This document shows, one piece after another, positions 34,007 to 64,000 of a stretch of 64,000 bases of DNA. This stretch comes from Protoeuglena noctilucae (Eukaryota): NCBI GenBank assembly GCA_958009085.1, contig OY253668.1, forward strand, positions 744,001 through 808,000. The letters are read 5' to 3'. The position numbers and the translations under genes were made by a program. Under the pieces are notes generated by a model. It was given only the letters and a program-made list of their open reading frames with translations, did not search any database and had not been told where the DNA came from. Positions within the stretch are counted from its first letter, which is position 1. Each line of letters starts with the position of its first letter.

Positions 34007-37000
34007 TGGTGACAACGCGTAATGCAGCAAAGCGCTTGCGCCTCCTACCCACCTCCCCAGTTGAAAACCACACCCCCCATGGGGGATCGGGTCCCCACTC
34101 AGGTCCCCCCCTGACATTGAGCCCCACAAATGGGCACAGGAATGGACCACCACCTAGGGCTGCAGCGCCCACGCGATCTTCCTTTGTCAGCTGCACCCCT
34201 CAACAGGGCACTTGTCCCCATTCCCCTCCACTCACCCGGCCTGGCCAACCTCACTGCCCTCACTCTCAACCTCAATGGTAACTTCCTCATGAAACAGGAG
34301 GCGCTGCTTGGCCTTATCCAGGCGCACCCCCACACATGGCTGGCTCCCCCCGCTTCCTTTGTCTTCCTCCAAGAGCTCAAAACTGAGCTGGATTAGCCCC
34401 CCGCCGCCTTTGCGTCCCTCGCGCGCCTCAGCCACCACGTGTGGCGCATGGGGCCCTCAGCCCATCGGGCTGGGGTGGCCATCCTCGTTTGCAACCAGCC
34501 TGGCTCCCACCTTCTCCACACCTGGACCGAACCTGACACTGCTCGCCTCACTGGCTTCGTGGCCCGCCTCGATGTCAAAGTAGCCAGCCGCCACTACACC
34601 CTCGTCAACGTGTACATGCCCCAAGACGCTGCTGACAAAGACTACGTCCTCTCCAGCCTCCTCCCTGACGGCCTCGCATCCCACGAACTCGGCCTGGTCC
34701 TCATGGGTGGGGACTGGAACATGGTCCTCGCAGCAGACATGGCTGCCTCGTCCTCGAACCACCAGGCCACCTCTGAGGTGCAGACGACCTTGCGAAAGAA
34801 GCTGCAAGCCCAAATCGAGGTTCTGGGCCTCATTGATGCCGGGGAGCAGGACCACAACAAGCCATTTGCAGTCCCCACGCGCCGGCACATGGCCCATGAC
34901 AAGTCGTGGAAGAACCGACTCGACCGTCTCTACGTTCCTCGGGACCAGCCCGCTGCCCTCCGCACGGAACACTCTGATGCCACCGCTCGCATCCACGCTG
35001 CCAACATTGCCCTCTCTGACCATGCCCCTGTTTACTTTCCTGCGCGACACCCCCCGCACCTCTCTCCGGCACCCCGCCAACATCCACCCGCACACGTCCT
35101 TCCTCGTGGAGGAGATTCGCCAGATGGTCGAGCCCCTGCAGGAAGCAGCTGTGTCCTCTGCCATCCTGGCCCATCCCGGGCCCGCCGCTCCCCCCAGCAC
35201 CGCCAAGCGCTGGGTCCAGCAGACAGCCAATGGCATCCAGGAGATCTCTCGACACTGGTATGCACACCAGTCCCAGTACATCAACCAGCGGAAGCAGCAG
35301 CTCCGGCTTCTGCGGGAGCAGTACTTTACAGCCGTGCGTGACGGCGAAGACGCCACTGCGTTCTGGTCCCAAATCCTCGATTACTACCAACATGCCCTAG
35401 CTAACCTCGACCGGCAGAACAAGACCCGGTCCTTTGATGTGCCGGCCTCAGCTCTCCCCCATGCCCTTCAGCCTGCCAGAGATAAGCCCTCCCCGCCAGC
35501 CACCAGCGTCAGAGATGGTGACGGCCAGCTCCTCTCCGAACCTGCTCTGGTCGAGGAGACCCTTGTGGACCACTTTAAGACGGTGGGGCAACCCACATCC
35601 CGCGATCCAGCTGCCCAGCAGCACGTGCTGGAGGTCCTCCAGAACTCTGGGCGCACGCTCACTGACCAGGAGCAGCAGAGCATTGATGCAACCATCACCG
35701 CGGAAGAGGTCCTTGCGGCCATCCACTCCTTCAAGCCTGAAAGCGCCACGGTGCCCATGGGCCTGCTGCCTGGCCTGTACCAGCGCTATGCCCACCTATA
35801 CGCCCCACTCCTCACTCTCCTTCTCAACACCATCCAGCAGACGGGTTTTATGCCCGCCTGCTTCCTTAACAGCACTGTCACTCTCATTCCTAAGCTCCCC
35901 AAAGCCACGGACTGCAAGCCCTCGGACTTCCGGCCCATCTCAGTCAATGATGCGGTCTACCGCGTCCTCGCTAAGGTGCTCAACACCCGGCTGCGCCCCG
36001 TCCTCCAACGCATCATCCCCCTCAGCCAGCAGGCCTTCATCAAGGGCCGATGCATCTCACGATGCGTGTACCTCACCCGCGCCACCCTGGAACTCTTCGA
36101 CCAGTCGGACGAGGGGTGCTTCATTATCTTCAATGACTTTGCCAATGCCTATGACACAGTCGACCGGCCCTTCCTCAGACGCATCCTCGAGACCTTGCGC
36201 TTTGGGGGAAACGTTCTGCACCTGGTTTGACATCATGCACACCCCCTCAGCCACCTACCAGCTCAAGCTGGGTCACGGTCTCAGCCGTGGTTACAGTGTC
36301 TCCACGGGCGTCCGCCAGGGCTGCCCGCTCGCCCCCTCCCTTTTCATCCTTGTGGCGCTCGCGCTCCACGAGCTGGTCGCCTCCAACCCCGACATCAAGG
36401 GCCTCCCGGTACCGGGACCCAACAAGCCCCCCCTCTACGCTTTCCGCACCGATAAACGGCTGGCCCAGGAGAGCCTCATCAGCCAATTTGCAGACGACAC
36501 CGAGTTCGTGCAGGCCACAGTGCAATCCATGCACAACTTATTCCAGGCTTTGGAAACCTTTCACCAGGCAACTGGTCTGCGCTCCAACCCCGCCAAGACG
36601 GGCATCCTTCCAGCTGGAAAGTGGAACACGGATCCAGCAGCGCTCCACCTGCACCTCACTGCTGCCCAGGCCCAGGGCCTCGACACGCTAATCTATGACC
36701 ATGCCCAGCAACGCTGGAAGCTCGATGGCTACTGGATTACCCCGCCTGGGGGAGAACCAGTAGCGCCAGTGAAATACCTGGGCACGCTCATGGGACCCAC
36801 AGGGATCGTCCCGACCGACTACTCATCCTTCGTGGCAAGCATCTATACACAACTCCTTCGCCTCCGGCAAACGATATCCCTCTGCTTCATCGGTGGAAAA
36901 CTGTCAAAACGTTTGTGCTGTCACGCCTCATCTACGCGACCACGCACTGCCCCATGGATTTTTCGCCAGGGAAGCCTGGTGCCCCGCTCCTTCGCTACAT

Positions 37001-38792
37001 CCAGCGCTACGTGCTCACGGAATCCCCCAAAACGCAACGGCTCCCGCCTGAGATTGACAGGAACGAGCTGTACCACCCCGTCAGCCGGGGCGGCCTTCAG
37101 GCTCAGCATGTGCCCTTTCACCAAGCGGCCCTCCGCTTCAAGATGATCCAGCTCCATGCGTCGGGGGCGGACCCCCTTTTCTCCAATGCCATCCACCAGC
37201 ACCTCGTCAGGTCCCTCAAGTATAAAGCGACGGTCAAATATGACGGACTGCGCTATGAGACGACGTTGTCCATCCCGGTGGGGCCCCACATCTGTGCTCT
37301 GACAGCCAAAGACTGGGCGGAGCTCACGCCCACCCCCCTCATTCGTGACCTTTTCAGCGCCACCTCGATGTTCCCCGCCACCCAGATGCTTCCTCCACCA
37401 CAGCCATACGCCAACCCACCCACCCTGAATGACCTGTGGATCCACCTGACCCCAATGCTCCGACCCCCGCTTCTCTTCAACCCACAAAACCCTCTCTCCT
37501 TCCCCGCCAACTTCGTGCACAGCCGCTCTACTGACCTTATCCACCAACGACTCCTCCTTGATCTGGGCCGCCATCATCCCAATCCTCGAACCTCTCCAGC
37601 GGGCCTTCCCGCTGGTCTCGTCGCTCATCATCCCTCGTGCCCACAATGGCCGTCTGGGACTCAAAGACCCTGACGACGTACTGACGACCCTCATGGTCCT
37701 GCCCTGGGCTCCTATATGGCCAGGCAGATTCGACTTGACTTCGTTTCTGCCCTCTCCGCCCACCTCAACATCAACAGCCCTGGCCGCCCTGGGCTCCCCG
37801 CCAACGCCTGGAATGACATCCGTGGTCCCACAGTCCTGTCTGTCTTCCCTCACGATTTCATCCACCGCATCTCTGGGTTCAGGGCCCAGGGCTGGTCCCA
37901 ATACTTCTCCATGCATGGCCACTCGCTTGGCCCCACGTACCACCCCCTGGCATCCATCACCCCCCAAGCCCATCACAGGGCCTTCGTGGTCGCAAAATAC
38001 TCGACGGACCAACCCTGCCAGCGTTTGTTGGAGGACAGCTCTCCCCATCTGGCACGTGCTGCGACTGCTGCCTTGGCACGCCCTCAGGCTAACCCCGCTC
38101 ACCTGGCCGCCGCCTCCACGGCCTGGCTCGCTGTCACCGACCGGTTGCCTACCTATTCTGACCTCCAGGGCAAGCCCTGCCCCCTCTGTCTCGAACTCCA
38201 CGGCACGTCCCTCCATGACCTGGCGGAGTCATGCCGCACGGCCCAGGTCGTGTGGCGCTCCGTCTTCCAATCCCTGCCTCCCCTGTCCTGGCAGAACCTG
38301 CGCCGCTGCCTTACCCAGCCACCCGTGGGGCCATCCGGCCTCTGCCCTGACCGTGGCACCCCCACTGCGTTCCTCTACCGCTTTGGCGCCACCCATGCCA
38401 GCTCCTCCCTGCTCAGGTCCCCCGCTTGGCGTCTCCTGTGGTCTGAAACTCTCCATGCCATCATCACCGCGCGCCGCTACTGGCGCACAGGCCATCCCCT
38501 CCCAGGTGCACCCCCCATGCTGCTCCTTGACCCTCCCGACGCCCCAGCGTGGGCACGGGCAGCTCGCATCGTCTCCTACGCCGGCCATAGGATCTCTTCT
38601 GCCCTGGCTTCCCACCACCGCCTCGCCTCCCCGGTTTCGGCCTCTCTGCTCCCAGACCTCCACGACCCTTCCCTCCCCCGCGGGGTCTTCTTCAAGGCCA
38701 TCTCTGTCACTCAAGACCTCTTCTCTTCTTTCTCACCTCTGCCTCCCCCGCAGCCGCCACCCCATCGCCGTGTTCCATTTGAGCCGGGATAG
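34006..38792 (+). pseudogene. LINE ORF2: apurinic-type endonuclease + reverse transcriptase + C-terminal Zn knuckle, disrupted
   Basis: EN: TLNLNG, FLQELK, GVAIL, LVNVYMP, GGDWN, RLDRLY, SDHAPV. RT: FRPISV, QQAFIKGR, DFANAYDTVD, GVRQGCPLAPSLF, QFADD, KYLG. CPLC-x8-H-x5-C. Broken by an in-frame TAG (34394) and several frameshifts. Confidence 0.92.
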
Positions 38793-41001: not shown

Positions 41002-41597
41002 TCACATCTCCGTCGACCTCCCCGCCACCCCCACGAGCTCCCCCGCGCCCGCCTCGCCCCTCCGCAGCTCCAGCCCGGCGGCCCCCTCGCCCCCCGGCGC
41101 GTCGGCGACGACCGTGTCCCCCGGCCCGAAGTCCCCCCGCAGGATGGCCTTCGCCAGCGCCGTCTCGAGCTCCTTCTGCACCACGCGCTTGACGGGCCGC
41201 GCGCCGTACACGGGATCGAACCCCTTGTGCGCCAGGTACGCGGCCGCAGCGTCCGTGAGCGTGAGTGCCATCTTTTTGTCCGTCAGGCGCTCGGCCACGC
41301 GACGGGCCTGGAAGCGCACGATGCTCTCGATCTGCGCTTTCCGCAGCGGCTGAAAGACGATGAACTCGTCGATGCGGTTAACGAACTCGGGCCGGAAGTG
41401 CCCCCGCACCATGGCAAGCACGCCGTCGCGGATGCCGTCGTAGCCCTCCCCAGCCATCTCCGCCTGCGTCGGTGGGAGACGTATAATGGATTCTAGCCCT
41501 TTCACTCGCTCTCTCCAAATGTCTGCACCGGGGCCCGTTGCAGCCAATCGTGCACCCGGGCACTGCCCCTCAGGTCACCTGGAGGATCTCCTGGCTG

Positions 41598-41628
<31 letters not shown>

Positions 41629-41940
41629 TCTTGAAGCTGATGACGCGCCCCTGCGAGTCCGTGACGCGCCCGTCGTCCAGGACCTGGAGCAGCACGTTGA
41701 AGACGTCCGCGTGCGCCTTCTCCACCTCGTCGAAGAGCACCACGGCGTAGGGGCGGCGGCGGACGGCCTGCGGCAGTCACGAGTTGACAGAGCGTCGATG
41801 CCGGGCCGGAGCAGCGCGGATGCCGGCAGGGCTCTACGCGTGACGACGCATGCGCGGGGCGGGGCATGCAGCTCACCTCCGTCAGCTGCCCGCCCTCCTC
41901 GTAGCCCACGTACCCCGGCGGTGCGCCGATGAGGCGGCTC

Positions 41941-41972
<32 letters not shown>

Positions 41973-44900
41973 CAGGCGCACCTGGGATGGCGTCAGACAA
42001 ACACGTGGATGAAGGTCCAGTGGCAGCGCCCATACGGAGCCATCAACTGCACTGCATGTTCCTCCGCAGCGCCCACACAGTCTCGCAGGGTTAACAAGGC
42101 AGCCATGGTCTGCAGCGATCGCGCAGGGGGCCCCACTCGCCATGGCGGACTCGGTGTCAAAAAGGAACTGGGCAAGGGCCTTGCACAGCTCGGTCTTGCC
42201 CACGCCGGTGGGGCCCAGGAACATGAAGCTGGCGATGGGGCGGTTGGGGTCGGACAGGCCCGCCCGGGACCGCTGGATGGCGTCCGCCACGGCCTCGACC
42301 GCCTCGTCCTGCAAACGAGTGACCGGCTCACGCGTGAGTTTGGTACGACGAGTGCAGACGCTTGCAAGGGAAGCTTGGAAGGCGGTGCGGCTCTGAATAG
42401 CCAGCCGCAGCGAGCGAGGGCGAGACTGGGAGCTGCGCCGCAGTTGGCTTGGTGCAGCACGTTTGCCAAGTCGCCGCACCTGCCCCACGACGCGCTTGTG
42501 GAGCTCGTCGGCCAGGTGCAGGAGCTTGGTGCGCTCCGTCTGCTGCAGCTTCGACAGCGGGATGCCCGTCCACTTACTGACAATCTCCGCAATGTCGCTC
42601 TCCGTCACCTCCTCCCTGCAAGCCGGGCAGGGCAAACAGGCATATCCTCGTGCTCCCATGCGTTTGTAAAGACGCAGCCTCTCACCCCGCCCCCGCCGCC
42701 GCTCACCGCAGCATGCGGTTGGGGCTGGCCTTCCCCGCCTCGATCTTCGCCTGGACCTCCTGCAGGGACTGCTGCAGGGACCTGAGCGTCCCGTACTTGA
42801 GCTCCGACGCACGCTGCAGGTCGTACTCGCGCTCCGCCGTCTGGATTTCAATGTTGACCCTGCGCGGATTGAGCAGATGTCGAGAGTCAGAGCAAAGCCG
42901 GGAGCTCTCAGGACATCCTCGGACCGACCACATCAGCCTGCCCGAGAGCACAGGAGTCTTTTACAAAGCACCTGTCGATCTCCTCCTTGACACTCTGCAG
43001 GCTGTCCATCAGCGCCCGCTCGCTCTCCCACCGCTCCGTCAGCTCGGACTGCTCGGCACGCAGCCGCTGCAGCCGGCGCTCCAGGCCGTCCAGCCGCGCC
43101 CCCGCGACCTTGTCGTCCTGCGAGTAGACCCATGCACTCGCATCACACGGCGCGGATCCCCAATGCACCCCAGCCACACCGCTCCGTCCTCAGCTCCGAA
43201 GCGCGCATGAAGCGCCTTTCACGCACCCGGGAGGCCTTGGTCAGCGACACGCGCTCCATTTCGAGCTGCATGACCTTGCGATCGATCTCGTCCAGCGCCA
43301 CGGGCTTGCTCGTGATCTCCATCTGCAGCTTGGCCGCCGCCTCGTCGACCAGGTCGATGGCCTTGTCGGGGAGGAAGCGGTCCGAGACGTATCTGGGAAT
43401 GCAAGGGAACCGAGACGGTCGACAACGACGAAAAGAGCACGAGACCTCCCATGATGGCATGCAGGGACGACGACGGCACAGGTGCGTGCGCTCGTGCGAA
43501 CTCCCCAGGTTGACGGATGATGGGAGGTGCGGATGCGTGTGCTCGTGCGAGCTCACCTGGCGGACATCTGCGCGGCCTCGACGAGTGCCGAGTCGGAGAT
43601 GCGGACCTTGTGGTGCAGCTCGTAGCGCTCCCGCAGGCCGCGGAGGATGGAGACCGTCTCAGCCACCGAGGGCTCCTTCACGTACACCTGCGAGGCACGG
43701 CCGAGCGGATACTCGAATTCGGACGAAACGAACGGGGGCGCCAGAGCATACGCTGCCGCGACAGTGCCGTTCATGCATACCAGCCAGCAAGTCTCCAGTG
43801 CCACACCGTTTGCCTGCCCGTGCCTGCGCTCTGTCAATGTTGTGACTGGCAGTCGTCGAAACGTCACCTGCTGGAATCGGCGCTCGAGAGCCGGGTCCTT
43901 CTCGATGTGCTTGCGGTACTCGTCCAGGGTGGTGGCCCCGATGCACCGCAGCTGGCCCCGGGCCAGGCTCGGCTTCAGCAGGTTCGACGCGTCCATCGCG
44001 CCGCCCGAGGCGCCGGCACCCACGACCGTGTGGATCTCGTCGATAAACAGCACGATCTTGCCCTCGGCGTCCTGCAGACACCGCGCTGCGGCGTGTAACG
44101 ACGTCGGGCACCGCGCGGCTTGCTTAGGCCCCTGGTGAGGTGCAGCGACCTCACTCCGAGCGCCGTCGTGCCCTCGCGGGATCGCTCAGACTCACCTGCA
44201 CTTCCTTAATGACGGCTTTGAGGCGGTCCTCGAACTCCCCTCGGTACTTGGCGCCCGCGATGAGGGCGCCCATGTCCAAAGCCATCAGGGACCGGCCCTG
44301 CAGGGAGGCAGGGACGTCGCCCGCCACGATGCGCTGCGCGAGACCCTCCGCGATCGCCGTCTTGCCCACGCCGGGCTCCCCGATCAGCACAGGGTTGTTC
44401 TGCAGGCGAGGCTCGGCCCCTGCTGGTTGGCCCCAACCGCGCATGGCAGAGGGGGACCAGTCGGGTAGTCTACTCTCCACTTCCCGCTTCGCAATCCTGC
44501 CCGTTGTACTCGCCTTGGTGCGGCGCGACAGGATCTGGATGGCCTGCCGCACTTCGCTGTCCCTCCCAATGACCGGGTCCAGGCGCCCCTCGCGCGCCTC
44601 GGCCGTCAGATCCCGAGCGTAGCGGCTCAGTGCCTCGTACTTGTCTTCGGGAGACTGGTCCATCACCTGTGCATGGAAAGGAACCGTGTTCGGGGCATCG
44701 CCCACCATGTCGGTCGCGCAGTGATAGCCCCCGATGCTCTCGACTATGAGCAGGGTGCGGCAGGCGCACGAGAGTTGCGCCCGATCGCACCTTGGAGCTC
44801 CCGCGGACCTCGGTGACCGCCTTGCTGAGCGCCTCCTGGGTGAGACCGCACGAGCGCAGGCACTCCTGGCCGAACCGCGCGTCCTCAGCCAGGCTCAGGA

Positions 44901-47175: not shown

Positions 47176-47670
47176 GGGGGCTGTGAGGAGGTAGACGCTG
47201 TGCATGCGATGTCCCAGACACCCGCGTCAGTTCGCTGTAGTCCTAGGCCCCCTTTACGTCAGGCACGCACGAGCGTCACCTTTTTTGCCCCGATTTGACA
47301 GCTGCTGACGGCCAGTGCCCTCCCATGATTTCCCATCAACAGTGCCTAGCACCTGCTTTCGCTGGTGCGACTCACGATTGCGCGTGTCCGCCCGTTTGCC
47401 TAAGCATTGATCTGGGCGTCTCGGTCCGAGTTCAAAGCACGACGCCCAAGCGCAGCCAAAACTGGGCGCACTGCCACCAGTCCGCCCCTCGCAGGGCTCG
47501 GCTGCTGCTGCTCACGGCCGTGCCGGAATCGCCACGAAAATCAGGGAGTAGAAAAAAGCCGGGAAACCTGGGGCGGCGCTGCTGTCCCCGCGCCAGGCCC
47601 CCGTCCGCGTAACGGTCGCAAGAGGCGGCCCGCGCGCGCCACCCGACGCGCCGCCAGCCGCGTGGGGTCC

Positions 47671-49409
47671 TCACATGGACGCCGGGTTCTGCACGATCAT
47701 CTGCAGCGTGGAGATCAGGAGGACGATGACCCACGCGGCCATGGCGATCCGGCCGTTCCACAGCTCGGCGTTCTTCGTCCAGCCCCACTCCCACAGCGAC
47801 CCCTCCGGGATGGGCAGCGGCAGGTTGTCGGCGTCGTAGGTCGCCAGGAGCGAGTCGATGTCGCCCATGGGCACCAGGCCCTTGCCCTGCCCGCTGGCCA
47901 CCGTGCCCACATACGGCAGCGCCTCCACCACCGCCTCGGCCAGGTCCTGGATGAAGACCGAGTTGGTGTTGAGCGCCGGCACGCGGCCCCACTCCTTGAT
48001 CCCAGACTCGAGGGCCAGTTCCCTGCGGGCGCGGCGGGCCGGCGACGCTGCGCTCACACCCCCGCTCCCGCCGCCTCGCAAAGCACCTGCCCAGACAACG
48101 CCCGCCCGCCCGCCCTCGCCTGTACTCCATGTCGATCTCCTCGAGCGTCTCGATGTGCTCCGACACGAACGAGATGGGCACCGCGAGGAGCGCCGGGCAG
48201 CCCTCCTTGCCCAGCCGCTCAATGGCGTCCTCCGTGTAGGGCTGCAGCCACTCGACGGGGCCCACGCGCGACTGGTAGGCGAGCGTGAAGGGGTTCTCCA
48301 CGCCCCGTCGGCGCAGCTCGGCCACGATCAGCGACACGCACTCCTCCATCTCTTCCTTGTACGGGTCGCCCGCCTCGTCCACGTAACTCTTGGGCACGCC
48401 GTGCGCCGAGAAGAAGAGGTGGACGGCCGAGGCGTCGGAGAACTTGGAGTTCAGGTCGTCTTGGATGAGGTCGGCCATGGCGCGGACGTAGCCGGGGCGC
48501 TGGTACCAGGACGGGATGACGGTGTGCTTGAGCTCCCGCAGGGAGGGGTCGTCGCGCATGAGCTGCTCCAGCAGGCGCAGGGACGACCCGGACGTGCTGA
48601 TGCTGAACTGCGGGTACAGCGGCAGCACCACGAGCCGCGTGACGCCGTCCCGCTTGATGTCCGCGACCGCCTCCTCCGTGAAAGGGTTCCAGTACCGCAT
48701 GGCCACGTACACCTTGGCGTCCACGCCCAGGCGCCGCAAAGCGCCCTCGAGGGCACGGGCCTGCTCGTCCGTGATCTTGCGCAGGGGAGAACCGCCGCCG
48801 ATGGACCGGTAGGCCTCCGTGCTCTGGGGAGAGGCAACGAGGACGGGTACTGTCACGGTCGCCCCGCCGCGCAGCAACCCGCGTCGCGCGCGCCGCGCCG
48901 ACTGCCCAGTCTGCGGCCAACGCGCACCTTAGGCGCCCGGGCCAAGGAGATGGCGGTGGCGATGGGCTTCTGCAGCCCCTGGAGGGCGGCCGGCAGGCGG
49001 ATGATGTCGGGGTCGGCAAAGAGGTTGTAAAGGAACGGCTGGACGTCGTCGAGCTTCTCGGGCCCTCCCAGGTTAAGCAATAGCACGCCGACCTTCTGTC
49101 CCTGGGCGCCAGCGGCGATCTTCCGCAGCACGGCGCTGTGGTCGGTGGTGTCGGCCACAGCACGCATGGGCGCGGCGAGACCGGCCGCGCGGCTCCTCCC
49201 CACGTACCCCACGCGGGGCAGCTCCCAACACATGAACGGCTCGGGCCTGCGTGGGCTGGCGGGACTCGGGATCGGCTGCGCGGGGCCCCTCGCAGGCCAT
49301 GCAAGCCCGAGCAACGCGTCAGCCCCGCGCGGGCGCCCCTCGCGAGGGCTGTGCAAGAGATTTGCGGCAGCGCGGACGTCGTGGAAGAGAAGGAGCGGGG
49401 CGACGGCAT
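47671..49409 (-). CDS. hemH: Plastid ferrochelatase with C-terminal CAB/LHC-like motif (FC2 type)
   Basis: [90 protein letters not shown]. 5' exon structure unresolved. Confidence 0.95.
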
Positions 49410-50124: not shown

Positions 50125-52590
50125 TCAAGTCGCGCGGGCCCCGCGCAGGAGGCCAGCCCAGGAGCGAGGAGGATCCAGCCGGGTCGAGATCGCGCTCCAT
50201 TCACCCATCGCTGCAATCGCCGCGGATCGCAGGGCGGGGCTGTCCGCGTAGAGACCCCGCGCCGCCACCGTGACGGTCGAGGAGGCGAAGCGCTCCACGC
50301 CGCGCGCGACCATGCACATGTGCACCCCATCGACCATCACGACGCAGCCGACGACGCCGGGGAGCGCCCCCACGGCGCCCGCGACCTGCTCGGTCAGCCG
50401 CTCTTGGATCTGAAGCTGCTGCGACGCTCGCCGCACCGCCGCCTCGACCCCGGCCCAGTCCACCTCCCGCCCCTGCCCCGGCGCCGTCGCCAGCACCACC
50501 CGCGCCCGCCCGTGGAAGGGCAGCAGATGGTGCTCGCACTGGGACTGGAAGGGCACGGCCGCAGACCCCACCACCTGCCACGCGCCCCCGGGCAGGGGCC
50601 GCCACGACGACGACCGCACCCCGGCGCGGCCCGACTCGCCGCTCGTCGACGCCAGAGGCCCCTCCGGCTCGTCGTAGCCCCTCGTCGACCGCAGCAGGTG
50701 CTGCACGAACTGCTGCACCGCCGACCGCCCCTCCTGCGGCCGAGCAACGGCAGACCGTGAGCGATGTGCCCGCCCCCCCTAGCCCGGGCCTCACGAACCA
50801 GGCCGCGACAGAAGAGGAGCCGGGGCCGTGCATGTCGCCTCCGGATATGGAGCGCCCCAGGGACCGTGAACACCGTGAGACGCAACGAGATAAGAGGCTC
50901 GCCCCGAACGGCCTGCCCGCACTTCGCTACACGTGCACTGCTCGCCTTCTGCGCCACGTCGCACCCCGCCGCCGTCGCCAACACAGCCGCGGCGGCCTCC
51001 ATGTCCGCCAGCGTCACGGCGGCACTCCGGCTCCCCAAGTCCTCCCCGGCAGCCTCCCGCAAGAGGGAAGGGGAGGTGCCAGGACCGTCGTTATCCTCGT
51101 CCTCGTCCGAGCCCATGCCGGAGCCAGGCGCCCGGCGCATGACGTCCGGCGCCAGGCAGCACGCGTCCGCGCAACACACGGCCAGCGCGGCCGTGCTGCC
51201 CGCCCGGCTCCCGAGGCCGTCGTGGCAAGAGCAGGTCGCACTGCGGCACGCCGAGGGAGGGCGGGGCTTCGCGGAGGCAGGTTGCCTCTGGCGCAACGTG
51301 GCCGAGGAGCCGAGGTGTCGGGCCACTGATTGAGACCTCAGGGGACGGGGTACCCCAGTGCCTCACCCAAAGTAGACCCTTTGATTTCCCTAGGCAGCCT
51401 GTGTGGGACTCCCCGAGGAAGGGAACGGGGGACCCAAGAAAGAGGCACAAGGGGCGAGTGACGACAGGGAGCGCGGCGTGCGACCCACCTCATGTCCACC
51501 GCCATCGTGTCGCTGGAAGCGCTCGACCGCTCGCTGGCGTCCTCGCCCGCCGGGGACCCAAACGGGAGCACGACGCCCCCGACGCGTAGCATGGAGACCA
51601 CCTCCGCCCAGCGTGCTGGGTCCTTCCCCGCGAAGGCCCCCGTGCGCTCGATGACGACCTCGCTGCGGAGCCCCGCGGGGCGCGCGAGGTGCCGAAAGAC
51701 CGCCACGACGGCCACCCCCGCTGCACCCGCGGCACGCTCCAGGGCCTCTGCAGCACCGCGGGCGAGGTCCTCCGGCGTCTGCAGGCGCTTGCTCAGCGAC
51801 TGGACGACGCGCGCGACCTTGGAGAGGCCCACGACGACGCCGCCGCGCGGGAGGTAGGCCACGTGGATGCGTCCGTAGAAGGGCAGCAGCGTGTGCGCGC
51901 AAGTGGACGCAAAGTCCACGTCCCGTACGAGGACGGGCCCCGCCTGCTCGTTCAGCCCGTTCTCCGCGAACAGCGCCCCCCCGATGGTCGCCACGGGGTC
52001 CGCGTCCCGCGCGGCCGTCATGTCCAGCCACGCCTTGGCCACCCGCTGCAGGCGCGAGGATCAAGCGCGCGTGAGGCGGAGGGAGTGACGCGCGTGATGC
52101 ATCTCATTGATGTGCAGTTGTGCGAGGAGCCGGACGGGACGCGGGCCCCTGGCACGCGCGCGCCGAGCTGCGGGAGGGTTGCGTGGGCGTGCCGAAGGAG
52201 GCACGACGGAGGGTCCCTCGCAAAGCCCCGGTGCCCGCAGCCATTGCGAACGCCGATCATGCAAAACGCACATAGGCCGCAGCGGCGAGGCCTTGGCACC
52301 GGCGTGCCGCCTCTGCGGGTCCCTCCCCAGCGAGGGAAATTCCCGCGCCGAGCCGGAACGGAAGGGAATGCCAAGCATCCACGTCGCCCATTTGTATACA
52401 GATGTACCCATGGAAGCGCAGAATCCGCAGAAACGTCGGCCCTCCTGGGCCCCCGCGCCTTTCCCGTCCTCACCAGCGGCGTGTCCCGCAAGCCCTCCCT
52501 GTGCACATCGTCCCCGAGGCCCTTAATAAGCGTCTCGACCGCCTCAACCATCGCGGGGAGCCCCGCCGCCCCCCATCGGTCGCCCCCCAT
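50125..52590 (-). CDS. GCH1: GTP cyclohydrolase I, plant-type with two tandem GCHI domains
   Basis: Domain 1: REGLRDTPL|RVAKAW, STCAHTLLPFYG, VGLSKVAR, RLQ. Domain 2: SQCEHHLLPFHG, LQIQERLT, HMCMVARGV. Confidence 0.9.
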
Positions 52591-52812
52591 CGCGGGGCCG
52601 CTCGGCAACGAGGCGGGGGCGCGCTCCGTTTGTCTCCCGGCCTCCAGAAAGCAGCAACGCAGCGACTGGCCGAGTGATGCGGGCACAGAGTGGCTGAGCT
52701 AGGAAGTGGCGCCTGGACGTCCTGCTCTCCCACTCGGCTAGCTCGGCGGCGTATCCTGACTTATCTCTCAGGCGGCTGCCTTCAAAAGAGCGCCGTCAGA
52801 CGTCGAAGTGGG

Positions 52813-52820
52813 TAGGGTTT
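52813..52820 (-). promoter_or_regulatory. Telo-box-like motif (AAACCCTA) in the GCH1/RMI2 divergent promoter
   Basis: TAGGGTTT on the + strand, inside a GGGTAGG...CCTACCC inverted repeat (52810-52838), between two divergent ATGs. Confidence 0.25.
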
Positions 52821-52953
52821 AGGAAGGGTTTCCTACCCGTCGTTCCTCCGTGCTCCGCTTGAATGCCAGGCGGCAGAGTTGCGAAGACGGCACACACCTG
52901 TACAGCAGTTTCCCTTTGCCAGCAGCTGTCTTCGCCAGGCTCGCGTTTATTTC

Positions 52954-54060
52954 ATGAAAGCGGGACCCGCCCTCGTGAAAGTTTCCATTTCCCAGCTCTT
53001 TCTCTGCAAACCCGTCGCGGACGCCGGGCGTGAGGCCACCTTCCGGCTCGGCGACGCGGAGTTCGAGCGCGTGTGGGTCCAGGTGAGGGACTGGGGGGGA
53101 CTGGAGGGTCTGAGGACCTCTTCAACTACTGGTGCGTGGAATCGAAACGTGCGCACCTTCGGAGAACGGTCCCGCGCTCGTTTCCCGTCCGTGCCCCAAG
53201 TGGGGGGGCCTGCTCGCCCCCGCCCAGGCCGCACCTGGCCAACCTCGGCACTCACCGTGCTTATTTTCACCCGTGTTGTCTCGCTCCTTGCTCCGCGCGC
53301 CCGTTCACCGCCCCAGGAGAGCCCCGCGCCCTCAGCAGATGCAGCGCGTTTGAACGAGCCACCCTGCCAGTGGCGCGAAGTGCCCGGTGCGCGGAACTCG
53401 CGACCCGCGAGGTCCCAATTTCGCCCCTTGACTTTCCGAGGGGTAACTTGTCCCCTTTCTGCCGCTTCTTTCCTCAAGAGAGCTCTGACTTTTCCGGGGA
53501 AGCGTGCTCAGCACGCGGGGTCATTGCGCGCCCGAGCTGCCGCCCACCGTCCACCCCGACCGGTGCCTGTCGACCATGGCCATCGCTTGCGCTCCGTGCC
53601 ATGCCGCGTGCCTCTCTCGCTGCGCAGGGGCGTGTGACCGGTGCCTGCGGTGGGAGCCCGGGCGACAAGCGGTCGTTCATCGTCACGGTGGACGACGGGA
53701 CGGGCCTGGTTGAGGTAGACGTCGCTGGCGCGTACAAGGTGAGCGAATACTCGGCCCCCGCTCTGACGCAGCCACCCACGCTGCACGGGGCGCACGTGCC
53801 ACCCCGCCCTCGCGAGCTTCGGTGCCACGCCCCTGGCAACCCCCCTCCCCCAGGTCTGCCCCGACCTGCCCCTTCCCGTGGACGGCGGCCCCGTGGCGGT
53901 GGTGGGTCGCATCGTGGACAAGGGCGGGCGCCGTCGCATCCGCGCCCGCAAGTTTGCCCCTTGCTCCGAGGCTAGCCTGCGTGCCTGGCCGCTGCTCCTC
54001 CGAGCGCTCCGCCCCGAGGGTGGTCCAACACCCGGGGACTCGTCCGTGCCGCGCTCGTGA
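52954..54060 (+). CDS. RMI2: RMI2-like OB-fold protein; exons 52954-53082, 53628-53738, 53854-54060
   Basis: ALVKVSISQL, FERVWVQ|GRV, TVDDGTGLVEV, VAVVGRI, IRARKF...W match the RMI2 pattern. Confidence 0.75.
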
Positions 54061-54074
54061 CCGATCCTGGAGCC

Positions 54075-55990
54075 ATGAGCCACCGGTCCTCGGGCAACGC
54101 TCGCCTCCTCAAGGAGCTGCAGAGCCTGGCGCCGTGGCAATGGGACCGCAAGGCGAGAGGCACGGCCGGGTAGCCGCGACACGGGTGGGGCGGTCCACCC
54201 ACCCGACCGTCCCAGGCCTCACGAGTGGCCAACCTTGCACCCATCACTTCAGGTCGCCGCTTCGCGACCGCGCGTGGCTGCGTCTGTTCCGCAGGTCAAG
54301 GAGCACCCCCCCGGCGACGCGGCCCTGCGTGACTTCAAGCAGGTAGAGGACATGTTCCGGCAGGCATTCACGAGGGACGCTGAGGACCCGAACCACACCA
54401 GGTGAGGGAGGCAGACGCATGGGGCGACCCGGGGGGGCATCAGGGATGCTCGGTCCGCGAGGCGTGGCAGGCCGGATGTAGCCGCGACCCATGGCCTGGC
54501 TTGGACACACCGCGCCCTGCCTCTGTGCCTGCAGCGTGGACCCCGGCGCCTCGAGCGGCGGGGAGGGCCACGAGGGGCGGCCCAAGGCCCAGCGGAGGCG
54601 GGTCCCGTCGGCCCGGGCCGTGGCCGCGATGGGGGGGGACCCGGCCGCCCACCGCCGCAAGGCGGCGCGTGGCGACGAGGAGGACGTGGGAGAGGGCCCG
54701 TGGGCCGCGGGGAAGGAGGCGCTGGAAGGGGCGGACGTGGGCGGAGGGGACAAGGAGAATCGGGAGACGTGCGACACGCCGCCCGCAGGCGCGCACCGTT
54801 CCCGCGCGTCGGTGGGCAAGGCCGACGCGGGGGCCCGCGTGGCCGCCACGCCCGCCACCGTGGGCCACGCACGCCGCCCGGCGCCTGCTGCGGACGCCGG
54901 CGCCCCCGGCATCGACACGCCCGCCACGGTGCCCGTGCGCCGGCTGCCGGTGGACCTGCCCCCGCTCGACACCGCCTCCGGGGTGGCTGCGCTGGCCGGG
55001 CCCGCGATCCCCCTCTTGCCACCCATGTCCCCCGCGGCCGCGCCAGGCCCGAGCGTCCCCGGCCACGAAGAGCCGGCCGCGTCGGAGGACCTTCCGGGTG
55101 CGGCCCCATCGAGGTCGCCCGCCGTGAACCTCGCCGCCCCGACCGTCGTGAAGCACGGCGACGGGGCGGGGCGCGTGGCGGCCCTGCAAGAGAGTGACGA
55201 AGACCCGGCGCCGGAGGTGGAGATGGCGCGGGAGGGAGAGTCGCTGTGCGTCGTGAAGGGCAGCGAAGGCTCTCTGGCGAAGGCTCCATTGGCCCCCGCC
55301 AACGTCGCCGCCCCGGAGCCAGCGCTCCCGGCCGGGGACCTGGAACCCGCGGTCGGGGCCTGCCTCGCGGTGGACGCCGCGGCGCCCCTGGCCGCTTCGG
55401 CGCCCATCCTCGCGGCACCAGAGGGCGCTGTCGACACGAGCGCGACGGAGGCGGTCGAGGTGGACGCCCACGGGCAGCCGGCACCGGGCCCTGCACGCGC
55501 CGTGTCGCGCCGGGCCAGCAGGAAGCGGAGAGCCCAGCAGCTGGTTGCGGCCCGGGACCGCCCCGCCCCTCGGTTGGAGGAGGCGGTTCAGGCCCCTGCT
55601 GCGGGGGAGGGCCTGGGCGAGGGTTTCGCGGGCGAGGGCACGCCAGAGGAGATCCCGGGGGCGGTGTTGATGGAGGCGGCGTGGGGCGGGGCGGTTTCGG
55701 TGGGGCGGGCGCCGGGGTCGGCGAGGAAGGGGTCGCAAGAGCTGTTCGGGGGGTCCCGGGGGTCTAGCGTGCAGAGCGCGGAGGGGCGTGGGGCCGAGGG
55801 CGCGACGGCGAGGGAGGGCGCGGGGAGCGAGGCGTGGTGGAGCGGTGCGGTGGCGGCGTGCGACCCCCGCGACCCCCTCGCGTGGCTGCCTGGGATGCTG
55901 CCCGACGCGCACCGCGTGCCCCGCAGCACGATGCTCAAGGCGTGCGCGATTCTGCGGGCCCTGGACGCCCGCGCGGGGTGGAAGTACTAG
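54075..55990 (+). CDS. Hypothetical protein (~550 aa), mostly low-complexity, 3 exons
   Basis: MSHRSSGNARLLKELQSLAPWQWDRK|VKEHPPGDAALRDFKQVEDMFRQAF...|long Ala/Pro/Glu exon ending DPLAWLPGMLPDAHRVPRSTMLKACAILRALDARAGWKY; splice phases consistent. Confidence 0.6.
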
Positions 55991-56161
55991 CAGCCAGGGA
56001 AGCGTGGTCAGGTAGGCAAAGGCATTGCTAGAGCCAACGGGTAAGGTGTGGCTGCCAATGCGAGCGATCTTGAACGTAGAGCCAGTAGAGCTAGCTTGCA
56101 ATCGCGAGGTGCATCCATGCGACCCGCAACAAGCACGGCAGGCGAGATGGAGTCGCGGATC

Positions 56162-59100
56162 CTATCCCGTGAGCGCCATTCGCAAGGCCCTTTCCTGCCT
56201 CGACACGGCCGCCGCCGTGCGCCGCTGGAGCGTGACGTGGGCCTTGCCGAAGGCGTGCAGCGCAGCCTCGACGGCACCCCAGGCGCCCGCGTCCGCCAGC
56301 CACGCCGCCGGCCCTGCCCGCCAGAGGCCCCGCGAGGCGGCAGAAGCCACATCCACCGCGGGCTGCACCACCTCGGCCACGATGGCGCGCAGGGACATGG
56401 GATTGGGGGTGCGTGCCGCCCCTGCCGGTCCGCTTGCCTCGGCTGTGGGTGACCCAGGGCCATGGCTGTCGCCCGGGTCCTTGCCGAGCATCGTGTCCCG
56501 CAGCACTTCTTCCAGGTAGGCTCGGTGGGCACGCGCCAGGCCCGCCACGTCCTCTGCAGCCGCCACGGCCGCATCGAATCTGCAAGCATCATAGAGGGAC
56601 GGGAGGCACACGTGCTGTGAAGAGATGGGCGCCACAATCAATATCGTCTCCTTTTCCAGAGTCCGTTAGCAGCATGTTACTGCCAACACAGGTTGCAGGA
56701 GACGTCGGGCCCCGAATACACAGCACAGCCTCACCTGGTGAGAGCCGCGCCAGTGGCGTGGGTCACAACGAAGAGGTGCAGCGAGGAGGCGAGGTGCGCG
56801 GCGATGTGGTGGAAAGCCAGGAGGGTGCGCAGGCGCGAGGAGGCGAGCGTGACGGCCGATGCCGACATGGAGCTGCAGGAGTCGGGGTGCGTGGCGCGGG
56901 CAGGGCCGTCGTCGTCCAGCAGGAGCCTCCGGGCACGGTCCAAAGCACGCTGGCGCCGCTGCAGCAGCCGGCCCGCCTCCGCGAGGTCCACCCACATCTG
57001 CGGGCAAGCTCAGGAGTCGGGTGTTCGAGTCCCACCCGTACACGCGTGCTGGACTTGTCACTGGTGCAGGAGCGCGAAGCGATGCTCGGGTCAATGCCAT
57101 CCACGCTGAGGGAGGTCACGTGGCTGGCGTTGATTGTCGCACAAGCACGTCAGTGGTGTCACCTCCGAGAGCGCTTGCCCCGCCCAGCGCAGCTGCAGGA
57201 CGCAGGTGTAGACCGCGGCGTATGACTGTGGCCAGTCGTGAGGGAACACAGCGGCGAGCGGCCACGGGAGGGCGTAGGTAGGGCGTATGGCCTCCAATGC
57301 CGCGAGATGGGAGCCCGAACAGACCACGGCACTCGCCCTGCGGCCCTTGTGCCACAGCTCCACGCCCATGCACCTGCGGCAGGTGGCCGGAAAGTAGTCT
57401 GGTTGTGATCCAAAGCCAGCCTTTCCACAGTCACCGAGAAAGGTGTCGAAACAAGTAAGGTCGGAGCCGCAGACGGCTCGCACGCACCTGACGTGGTCTG
57501 CGGGCAGGGCCTCTGCGGACGACCCGCGGAGGGCGCCCTCCCAGGCGTCACGGAGTGGTTGGCTGAGCAGTTGACCTCGCTCCCGGCACAGGTGGCGGAG
57601 GTCCGTGACGAGGGTGTCGCCCACATCGCCGCAGAGGATGAAGAAGTGCCTGGGGTCACAGGGGCAGGCGAGGAGTGGCATGAGGGCAGAGGAGTGGTGC
57701 GAGGGCAGAGGAGTGGTTCGAGGGCAGAGGAGTGGCGTGAGGGCATTGGAGATGGTGGCACATGCAGTGCAGGTGGCCCACTCACGCGCGCACGGATGCC
57801 AGGTGGCCTGGGAGACCCAACTGCGCCCGCATCAACGCCAAGCACGCCGCGGACGTCAGGCGGTGCTGCACCCGGGCCGGCAGCTCCACACACGCCGCCG
57901 CCACCTCCCACGGCAATGCGGGAGCGTCGCTCGGCCCGGCTTCTGCCGAGACGACCCCTACGCTGCCCCTTGCAAGTGCGCGCCTGTCGACGTGGCCCTC
58001 TGTTGACCGCCCTTGTGATGTCACCCCGCTGGAAGGACCCCCCGGACCCTGACCATCCCTCAATGCTACTTCTCGGCCTCCCTTTTCGTCGACTGACGAC
58101 CCACGCTCCTCACGCTCGGATGGCCGACTCGCAGGCGCCCCATCTCTCACCAGGGCCGCCGTGCGCCTCCCCTGCCCTTCAGACCCCTCCTCCCTGGCCC
58201 CATCGCCGCCCCTCGCCACCACATCTGTGCCCTGCACCCCTGCCTCCCCTGCCTCGCCACCCAACCCCGCCTCGTCCCTGCTGTCGCCTTTGCCATCCGC
58301 CACCCCTCCCGCGCTGCGCCCCTCCCCGCGCACGCCCCCCTCGGTCGCAGCAGACTCAAAGTCCAGCACTCTCCGAGGCATGACGTCCTCCTCATCTCCC
58401 TCCCTGCGCACGTCACCCCCTTGCTCTTGCTCGGCCACCAACCCCACGACGTCAGCACTGCCCATGCCTTCCCACCCGCGACCCTCGTCGGCCAGCCCCG
58501 CGGCTGAGTTGCCACCGCGGTCGGCAGCTCGAAGCTCCGGGCCCAGCGCCGCCTCCTCCGCGCGCAGCTTGGCGTCACGTTTGGCGGACAGGCGTAGGCG
58601 CTCTAGGCGCCAGGCTGAGAGCTCCGGGGACATGGTGCGGCCTGAGATCTGCAGAGGAAGAGGAGCGGATTTCATTTATCAAAGTGACCACTGGACACAT
58701 GCATGGTGGCGAGCTGACCGTGAGCTCAGGCCAGCGCAGCGTGTTCCATCCCTCCTGTCCCTGAGTACACTAACTCAGCTGGTCTGAACCCCACCACCGC
58801 TTGCACCCTCCCAGGGCAGCTGGCACTCTGAGGGCCGTTCATTCAAAGTTCCCTCCCTCTCACCGATCGCACCGCCTCCTCCAATGCCGCCCGCGTGGCG
58901 TCGACCTCTGCGTCCCGGGCCTTCCGTGCCGACGCCACCAGCCGGGCCAGGTCCTCTTCTCTGTCCTGAGCCTGCCCGAGAGCCGACGCGCGGGCGCGGG
59001 CCTCGATCGTCCGGCGTTGCTCCGCGAGGAGGTCGGCCTTGCGGCGCCTGGGAGTCACAACGGACGGTTGCGAAGGTGGGGTGCAGGGCGCAGATGGGTG

Positions 59101-62394: not shown

Positions 62395-64000
62395 ATGCGC
62401 GAGATCGTCCACATCCAGGGTGGCCAGTGCGGCAACCAGATCGGTGCCAAGTTCTGGGAGGTGAGTTTTGCTGCGCGTAGCGTGGGCTTCCGGGGCCCGG
62501 GGAGCGGCGCCCCGGCCTGGGCGGCCCGCTCCCGACGTTCCCAGGCGAACCTGGCCCTTCTCCCTGCTGTCGCGCGCTTCTTGTGCGTCTTTCTCTGCGG
62601 GAGAGCAGCCGGCGCGCGCCCCGGGCGGCCCGGTCGGCCGCGCGGGCCCCTGGGACATGCCGTGCCTCCCCAGCGCGCCGTGCGCGCCGCTGCTCGCCCG
62701 GTCCGGGGAACGCCCGCCCTCCCGCGTCTTTTCTTCTGAGAAGAACCGTCGGAGGGCCATGTATTTTGAATCGGGCGCTGGGGTTGCGCGGGGGCGACTG
62801 CCCAGGCACCGGGCCGTTGCGCGGGCGCCCCGGCCGGGCCTGGCCCTTTCGACGCTGCGCTGCCGCTCCCTCTGTCCCTTTATTTCCGCACGGTGCCGCT
62901 GCGGTGGCCAGGTGCTCGGCATAGCCGGGTGGCTACCGGTGTTATTTTCGTCGCCGACCCGGGGATCCCCCCCGCGCCACCGCCTGCCGCGGTCCGGCTG
63001 CCGTATCGCGGTCTTTCATGCGTGAAGTTTTCACGCTTGAGCCCGGCGGCTTCCTCTTTGCTGCCGTCGCGTTGCTTGGGAGGCCAAAGCACCACCCTGC
63101 ATGCCCCGTGGCGGGCCTCCGAGACCGGTTCCCGACGCCCCGCTGCCCTCCTTCCGTCCAGGTGATCTGCGACGAGCACGGCATCGACCCCACGGGCACC
63201 TACCACGGCGACTCGGATCTGCAGCTCGAGCGCATCAATGTCTACTTCAACGAGGCCTCGGGCGGCCGCTACGTGCCCCGCGCCATTTTGATGGACCTCG
63301 AGCCCGGTACCATGGTGAGAGGCGCTCGCGGGACGGAGGCGCGTTCGGCGCGGGGACCCCGCCGCGGCGATGCATGCGGTGCCACATGTCGCGCCCGCCC
63401 CCCTGTGCAGGACTCGGTCCGCTCGGGCCCCTACGGCCAGATCTTCCGCCCCGATAACTTCGTCTTCGGTCAGACGGGCGCGGGCAACAACTGGGCCAAG
63501 GGCCACTACACGGAGGGCGCCGAGCTGATCGACTCGGTGCTGGACGTGGTGCGCAAGGAGGCCGAGTCCTGCGACTGCCTCCAGGGCTTCCAGGTCTGCC
63601 ACTCGCTCGGCGGCGGCACGGGCTCCGGCATGGGCACGCTGCTCATCTCCAAGATCCGCGAGGAGTACCCCGACCGCATGATGTGCACCTTCTCGGTGGT
63701 GCCGTCGCCCAAGGTGTCCGACACGGTGGTGGAGCCCTACAACGCCACGCTGTCCGTGCACCAGCTGGTCGAGAACGCCGACGAGTGCATGGTGCTCGAT
63801 AACGAGGCCCTGTACGACATCTGCTTCCGCACCCTCAAGCTCACCACGCCCACGTTCGGCGACCTCAACCACCTCATCTCCGCCGTCATGTCGGGCATCA
63901 CGTGCTGCCTGCGCTTCCCCGGTCAGCTCAACGCCGACCTCCGCAAGCTCGCCGTGAACCTCATCCCCTTCCCCCGTCTCCACTTCTTCATGGTGGGCTT
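62395..64000 (+). CDS. TUBB: Beta-tubulin (3' part beyond the window)
   Basis: [31 protein letters not shown]..., [47 protein letters not shown]. Confidence 0.99.

Follow-up and report, generated by a model that had tools for sequence, protein, structure and literature searches.

A candidate leaky-scanning bicistronic locus with an RMI2-like upstream reading frame in a GC-rich green alga

Two open reading frames (ORFs) lie 14 nt apart at 52954-55990 on the + strand of the stretch analysed here, a 64,000-nt window of contig OY253668.1 from Protoeuglena noctilucae. The upstream frame (ORF1) is RMI2-like; the downstream frame (ORF2) is much longer and matches no Pfam family. The locus is probably a new case of the leaky-scanning bicistrons of chlorophytes. 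From the layout of the two frames, their start contexts and the published precedents, we infer one mature messenger RNA (mRNA) spanning both ORFs, translation of both, and leaky scanning as the route to the second.

In the arrangement proposed, a promoter in the stretch of at most 334 nt between a divergent upstream gene and position 52954 would drive a single mRNA. This mRNA would carry two frames separated by 14 nt: 148 codons for an RMI2-like OB-fold (oligonucleotide/oligosaccharide-binding fold) protein, and then 546 codons for a lineage-specific one. With T at -3, the ORF1 AUG stands in a poor context, so that a share of the scanning 40S subunits would initiate there. The others would pass 458 nt without an AUG and initiate at the AUG of ORF2, whose context, with G at -3, is better. 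Since the ORF1 AUG would be partly bypassed, its context would set the ratio of the two proteins.

Gene models were made by reading positions 52500-56500, a locus of approximately 70% GC, and were spliced by script. ORF1 starts at the ATG at 52954 and has three exons, all in phase 0 (52954-53082, 53628-53738 and 53854-54060); the spliced frame of 447 nt holds 148 codons and a TGA. Its two introns, 53083-53627 (545 nt) and 53739-53853 (115 nt, free of ATG), are both of the GT-AG type, with donors CAG/GTGAGG and AAG/GTGAGC, respectively (the slash marks the splice site). The TGA occupies 54058-54060 and is followed by the ATG-free spacer at 54061-54074; the next ATG on the + strand is the start of ORF2 at 54075. 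The two reading frames differ, with 17 nt from TGA to ATG. The first-pass annotation had reported an RMI2 stop ending at 54060, a 14-nt gap to an ATG at 54075, three exons of about 450 nt in total and a first intron of 545 nt; the sequence bears out the coordinates, and the spliced model agrees with both lengths.

ORF2 also has three exons (54075-54152, 54295-54401 and 54535-55990, the last including the TAG). The spliced frame is 1641 nt (546 codons plus TAG), relative to which ORF1, at 447 nt, is short. Intron 1 (54153-54294, 142 nt) is of the non-canonical GC-AG type (AAG/GCGAGA ... CCGCAG/G). Intron 2 (54402-54534, 133 nt) is GT-AG. Gene finders limited to GT-AG introns would miss the first exon and start codon of ORF2, because the first intron is GC-AG. 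The ORF1 stop lies 92 nt 5' of an exon junction; this distance would expose the mRNA to nonsense-mediated decay in systems which couple decay to exon junctions, an issue discussed for CDC26-TTM3 by Duenas et al. 2025 (PMC11892635).

Both frames carry the composition of coding DNA. GC at codon positions 1/2/3 is 0.70/0.44/0.81, 0.70/0.54/0.84 and 0.78/0.64/0.81 in exons 1 to 3 of ORF1, and 0.62/0.50/0.92, 0.69/0.39/0.89 and 0.81/0.65/0.90 (the last over 1455 nt) in exons 1 to 3 of ORF2. The order is GC3 > GC1 > GC2 in 6/6 exons, as in a ferrochelatase exon of the window used as a control (0.67/0.46/0.93). The pattern is absent from all four introns; in ORF1 intron 1 the three positions are flat. 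Since the pattern is found in every exon and in no intron, both ORF1 and ORF2 appear to be coding and neither is a mere leader. GC1 above GC2, with GC3 highest, also points to coding on the + strand rather than to an antisense gene.

This evidence bears on whether the gene model is wrong, either because the ORF1 exons are an untranslated leader of ORF2 or because alternative splicing fuses ORF1 and ORF2. Such an error would fit three negative results: ORF1 exon 3 found no sequence homolog in the protein collections searched with it, no exon matched the Pfam RMI2 family, and no spliced RNA was found in three sequencing runs for either of the two ORF1 introns. Nevertheless, coding periodicity is present in 3/3 ORF1 exons and absent from the introns, and the nearest feature cluster of exon 3 is RMI2, with OB folds as the other matches. 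Fusion by splicing had been named in the first-pass annotation as a refuting outcome; the frames differ, and exon 3 contains no donor with at least 6 of 9 consensus positions in a fusing phase, so that no plausible in-frame fusion is available. An RNA contig is, moreover, continuous and unspliced over 54046-54150. An erroneous gene model is therefore most improbable.

The region ahead of ORF2 is poor in ATG. Spliced ORF1 plus spacer (461 nt) holds a single ATG, the start of ORF1 itself, with none in the following 458 nt; the earlier claim that the RMI2 exons lack ATG after the start thus stands. Genomic DNA between the two starts contains three ATGs (53339, 53576 and 53601), all within intron 1. 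Mononucleotide shuffling of ORF1 plus spacer gives an expectation of 3.3 ATGs, with ATG absent from 3.0% of 20,000 shuffles; dinucleotide shuffling gives 1.95 expected and none in 7.4% of 5,000 shuffles. ATG-to-ATG gaps of at least 461 nt are found in 7/807 cases on the + strand and 6/820 cases on the - strand of the window. Exon 1 has 0 ATG vs 1.1 expected, and exons 2-3 plus spacer (332 nt) have 0 vs 2.2 expected. ORF2, after its start, has 8 observed vs 8.9 expected (observed/expected approximately 0.9). The depletion ahead of ORF2 is real but modest.

This lack of ATG is explained by the protein and not by codon choice or selection at silent sites, because 81% of 5,000 synonymous codon permutations of ORF1 are also free of ATG. 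Methionine after the start makes up 0/147 residues in ORF1 vs 8/546 in ORF2.

The two start codons differ in context. ORF1 starts at tatttcATGaa (T at -3, A at +4) and ORF2 at ggagccATGag (G at -3, A at +4); this agrees with the weak RMI2 start, with a pyrimidine at -3, and the strong downstream start described previously. A further ATG, at 52863, lies out of frame 91 nt 5' of the ORF1 start; it also has a weak context (gcttgaATGcc, T at -3). It opens a possible upstream ORF (uORF) of 56 codons at 52863-53033 (+), which overlaps the ORF1 start out of frame. This uORF possibly matters, and then only if transcription starts upstream of 52863, which would place its ATG within the 5' untranslated region (UTR).

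Two of the intron 1 ATGs have features of their own. The ATG at 53576 has a strong context (tcgaccATGgc; A at -3, G at +4) and opens a cysteine-rich 45-codon frame at 53576-53713. The ATG at 53601 is in frame with ORF1 exon 2. Both would matter if transcripts begin within intron 1.

Among the runs listed, eight contain at least part of the stretch, four of them marine metatranscriptomes of one study. RNA evidence was taken from contigs of three of these four (X1, X2 and X3), alongside one run that contains the entire stretch and is probably the source DNA; all RNA pieces match the locus with 0 mismatches. The rule for a bridging contig was 31 nt. One contig of 205 nt (X3 record 14) covers 54046-54150 and then 54293-54392, skipping 142 nt; the joint has 3 ambiguous letters and fits GC..AG at 54153..54294. 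The GC-AG intron of ORF2 is confirmed by this contig, without which the sequence model of it would carry little trust. The same contig indicates that the 5' part of the ORF2 mRNA is spliced and reaches back past the spacer and the ORF1 stop codon; ORF2 exon 1, the spacer and part of exon 2 lie within it. ORF2 exon 3 is covered by contigs in 3/3 runs.

Other contigs are unspliced. ORF1 intron 2 is retained in X1 record 1, which begins at 53575, and in X2 record 8; ORF2 intron 2 is retained in X1 record 2, and no spliced read was found for it. Positions 52620-53574 (the promoter, ORF1 exon 1 and most of intron 1) and 53963-54045 fall outside the RNA contigs of the three runs; this counts neither way. 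Taken together, the RNA data fit a single transcript and fall short of demonstrating one. The earlier proposal that both proteins are made from one mRNA therefore holds in part: all sequence signatures and the precedent are in its favour, while the RNA contig reaches only 15 nt into ORF1.

Several points weigh against a single bicistronic mRNA. X3 record 14 has only those 15 nt on the ORF1 side, which is under the 31-nt rule. Among contigs of X1 and X2 that touch an intron, 4/4 are unspliced (records 1, 2, 8 and 9), so these libraries contain pre-mRNA or DNA. Assembly may, moreover, fuse transcripts that overlap; X1 record 3, which crosses from ORF2 into its convergent neighbour, is an example, so contigs do not prove a single transcript. 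The lack of ATG is weakly significant (none in 3.0-7.4% of shuffles) and traces to a methionine-free protein; exons 2-3 plus spacer (332 nt) would lack ATG just as well if they formed a long 5' leader on an mRNA for ORF2 alone. The start contexts were ranked with the general -3/+4 rule, which may not be the consensus of the host; A occupies +4 in either case. Within intron 1, GC falls to 0.58 (53400-53499), a dip which is lesser than the dip upstream of ORF1 and resembles intergenic DNA; because of this likeness, the intron could hold an internal promoter. Protein collections and metagenome contigs, searched for linkage of the two ORFs, yielded no relative of ORF1 exon 3 or of ORF2. Finally, the closest published locus, an RMI2 pair in Auxenochlorella protothecoides, has another downstream partner; it serves as a precedent, but the two pairs are not orthologous.

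The main rival follows from these points. Two overlapping monocistronic mRNAs would be made if ORF2 had its own transcription start in intron 1 (downstream of the 53601 ATG) or in exon 3, with ORF1 polyadenylated inside the 5' part of ORF2. We regard this as possible rather than probable. In its favour are the lowered GC within intron 1, the start of unspliced X1 record 1 at 53575 and the compactness of the genome, where gene ends lie approximately 171 nt apart and a contig runs across convergent genes, so that transcripts overlap; the 332-nt ATG-free leader would account for most of the depletion. Against it, any start upstream of 53576 would put that strong-context ATG, as well as the 53601 ATG, ahead of ORF2. 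Exon 1, which would not belong to the ORF2 leader, is ATG-free as well (1.1 expected). The junction between ORF1 exon 3 and ORF2 has no space for a poly(A) site and no GC dip (0.70-0.73 at the junction, while GC falls to 0.54-0.59 upstream of ORF1). RMI2 is, in addition, part of an Iso-Seq-defined bicistron in A. protothecoides with equal spacing (PMC11892635).

A single bicistronic mRNA could also be read in another manner, with ORF2 reached by termination and reinitiation after translation of ORF1. The 14-nt spacer leaves the ORF2 AUG within reach of post-termination 40S subunits; reinitiation cannot be fully discounted according to PMC11892635, where AUG depletion near the stop codon is noted to fit it too. 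However, the same source gives reinitiation as most efficient after uORFs of a few codons, whereas ORF1 has 148. Its mutational evidence (changes to the Kozak context and reintroduction of AUG) has the sign expected for leaky scanning. At the present locus, the weak ORF1 context and a depletion which extends throughout ORF1, rather than near the stop alone, fit leaky scanning. Reinitiation is thus quite improbable here, and leaky scanning remains the favoured route.

ORF1 is taken as an RMI2-like OB-fold protein from its sequence features. Tests of family, fold and homology were made exon by exon. An ESM Atlas feature search with exon 3 (68 residues) gave as top cluster 'RMI2 protein (Fragment)', with a score of 0.94 and 203/256 features shared; this feature measure is not validated for parts of proteins. 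PF16100 is present on 49% of the members of this cluster (recognition 2690). The list also includes a cluster of plant RMI2 (score 0.82); the remaining entries with a family are OB folds (Ten1, Stn1, tRNA_anti-codon and RPA3-like). In Pfam, exon 2 has a weak match to the RMI1_C OB fold (E 0.28). Within the RecQ-Top3-RMI complex, the DNA-repair protein RMI2 (PF16100 / IPR032245) attaches to RMI1 at the C-terminal OB fold of the latter. RMI2 is a small single OB-fold protein of about 130-150 residues, a size which the 148 residues of ORF1 fit.

Sequence-based searches for ORF1 relatives were negative. With a threshold of E 10, none of the three exons matched Pfam PF16100 (RMI2). A PDB sequence search with exons 2 and 3 did no better than chance (E 0.88 or worse). 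For exon 3, a homology search left 150 longer candidates, of which not one reached E 0.01. Against the full HMMER library, exon 3 had three matches. One is a 60-residue fragment of itself; the others are two long proteins, matched in 4 and 11 stretches and read here as low complexity. In metagenome contigs, 599 pattern matches to exon 3 were found and 0 were confirmed.

Judged by its sequence, ORF2 is a low-complexity, lineage-specific orphan of 546 residues. Its third exon is rich in Ala, Gly and Pro. No Pfam family was found for the three exon translations at E up to 10, nor for protein P0001 at E up to 1. A homology search with exon 3 gave one match, to itself, among 8000 scored candidates; low-complexity words may have displaced relatives. 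As with ORF1 exon 3, metagenome contigs gave 599 pattern matches to ORF2, of which 0 were confirmed. An AlphaFold2 single-sequence model of the C-terminal 129 residues is poor, with a mean predicted local distance difference test (pLDDT) score of 51.3. A Per1-like identity (IPR007217) was considered for ORF2 and rejected, as the Pfam searches contain no Per1 match.

The host is supported as a chlorophyte by a ferrochelatase gene in the window. The exon at 47435-48928 (-) matches PF00762 (E 4.6e-82) and is 77% identical to its nearest named relative, from Pedinophyceae sp. YPF-701; identity to the other named green-algal ferrochelatases listed is 68-75%. In a tree of 32 rows, the window sequence pairs with a Logan protein, and the branching between this pair and Pedinophyceae sp. 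YPF-701 is unresolved, so the class is not fixed. A preprint on a pedinophyte genome gives a size of 28 Mbp and 70% GC; the composition of the window matches this GC value. The chlorophyte host assumed in the first-pass annotation is supported by both the ferrochelatase kinship and the GC match.

The locus is tightly enclosed by other genes. Upstream, the first coding exon of a divergent neighbour lies at 52449-52590 (-), with its ATG near 52590. This neighbour is probably GTP cyclohydrolase I, judged by a weak Pfam match to PF01227 (E 0.077; residues 15-38 on profile positions 2-25). RNA contig X2 record 7 spans 52449-52619 here; as RNA of the neighbour reaches 52619, the promoter and 5' UTR of ORF1 are confined to at most 334 nt. 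This putative shared promoter region and ORF1 5' UTR (52620-52953) has a GC of 0.54-0.62 vs approximately 0.70 or more in genes.

Downstream, the last exon of a convergent neighbour lies at 56162-56665 (-), with its stop approximately 171 nt from that of ORF2. It is possibly a gamma-tubulin complex component, from a weak Pfam match to PF04130 (E 0.1). RNA contig X1 record 3 (55013-56227) crosses the ends of both genes; since one contig crosses both, their 3' ends abut or overlap within approximately 171 nt. The poly(A) motifs TGTAA and AATAAA were not found on either strand of 52600-56400, and the poly(A) signal of the host may be another. Rfam gave no match in 52300-56500 at E up to 1.

Three further features were observed elsewhere in the window. 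Two overlapping frames with reverse transcriptase domains (PF00078, E 2.8e-11 and 1.1e-07) lie at 34584-37143 (+); from their sequence they are probably a frameshifted or intron-bearing retroelement. An ORF with a Clp/Hsp100-type AAA_2 domain (E 2.6e-21) lies at 41505-42932 (-). An ORF with a tubulin/FtsZ GTPase domain (E 1.5e-49) lies at 62925-63998 (+) and extends past the end of the window.

Leaky-scanning bicistronic nuclear mRNAs are already established in green algae, so the locus is one more example of a known principle. If the reading is correct, it extends bicistrons to a GC-rich marine chlorophyte with a pedinophyte as the source of its nearest named ferrochelatase; pedinophytes are absent from the species lists consulted in PMC11892635 and PMC7896298. 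There is also a consequence for annotation: the RMI2 gene would be lost in pipelines which allow a single ORF per transcript.

RMI2 is upstream both here and in A. protothecoides, and the 14-nt spacing is shared while the downstream genes differ; this raises the question of whether some small proteins are repeatedly recruited or retained as upstream cistrons. An extended version, which we put forward tentatively and consider rather unlikely, is that RMI2 is an old recurrent upstream cistron of core chlorophytes. Its methionine-free, weak-context design and 14-nt junction would then have been kept from Trebouxiophyceae to a pedinophyte-like alga, with the downstream cistron exchanged. If true, upstream cistrons would be portable modules placed before different genes, and not members of one conserved fixed pair.

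Bicistronic mRNAs with a short, weak-context first ORF are known in chlorophytes, as had been claimed from the outset; the published record goes as far as an RMI2 cistron with a 14-nt inter-OR​F distance in A. protothecoides (PMC11892635). That study curated 36 bicistronic loci in C. reinhardtii and 43 in A. protothecoides. Median ORF1 lengths are 357 and 291 nt and median inter-ORF distances 183 and 40 nt, respectively; in contrast, monocistronic colinear genes are spaced 2.5-3.4 kb apart (median). ORF1 has weak Kozak-like contexts and AUG is depleted before ORF2; the median observed/expected AUG in ORF1 is 0 in A. protothecoides. The present locus is in keeping with the published medians for ORF1 length, inter-ORF distance and AUG content. 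Gallaher et al. 2021 (PMC7896298) reported exclusively polycistronic loci, 87 in C. reinhardtii and 173 in C. zofingiensis. The supplements of that paper, where searched, have no entry for RMI2 or 'genome instability'. A full-text literature search for RMI2 in polycistronic or bicistronic settings or in green algae gave no paper discussing such a locus; within the literature so covered, RMI2 as an upstream cistron is in print solely as a supplement row, with a different partner.

Comparison can also be made outside the algae. The stoned and Snapin dicistronic mRNAs of Drosophila, as discussed in PMC11892635, resemble the present locus in having an upstream ORF without internal AUGs and with a non-consensus start. 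In these mRNAs, leaky scanning gives access to the second ORF; the kingdom is a different one and the genes are unrelated. The chlorophyte polycistronic loci are closer, and share with the present locus a short ORF1, a tiny inter-ORF distance, a weak ORF1 context, AUG depletion and partners which are unrelated or of unknown function. These chlorophyte sets rest on Iso-Seq (with Ribo-seq as well for the 36 C. reinhardtii loci), whereas a single transcript is proposed here from sequence features.

The nearest known system is the A. protothecoides pair UTEX250_A09.22680.1 (RMI2, IPR032245) and UTEX250_A09.22675.1 (Per1-like, IPR007217), given in Datasets S1B, S2B, S3A and S5A of PMC11892635. The RMI2 gene of this pair was seen by Iso-Seq only on the two-ORF transcript; we infer ours. 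Colinearity of the pair extends to Prototheca cutis, and PacBio data support the pair in Chlorella sorokiniana. The hosts differ: A. protothecoides is a trebouxiophyte, whereas the nearest named ferrochelatase to that of the present host is from a pedinophyte. The 5' UTR is 6 nt in A. protothecoides and at most 334 nt here, and the downstream cistron is a Per1-like endoplasmic reticulum protein in the former and a 546-residue low-complexity orphan without a Pfam family in the latter. RMI2 is upstream in both, with an ORF1 of 423 nt vs 447 nt here and an inter-ORF distance of 14 nt in each; ORF1 is poor in ATG in both (1 in A. protothecoides, 0 here). The ORF1 contexts are CTTCA-ATG and ATTTC-ATG, with T at -3 in both, and the ORF2 contexts are CCAGC-ATG and GAGCC-ATG, with a purine at -3 in both.

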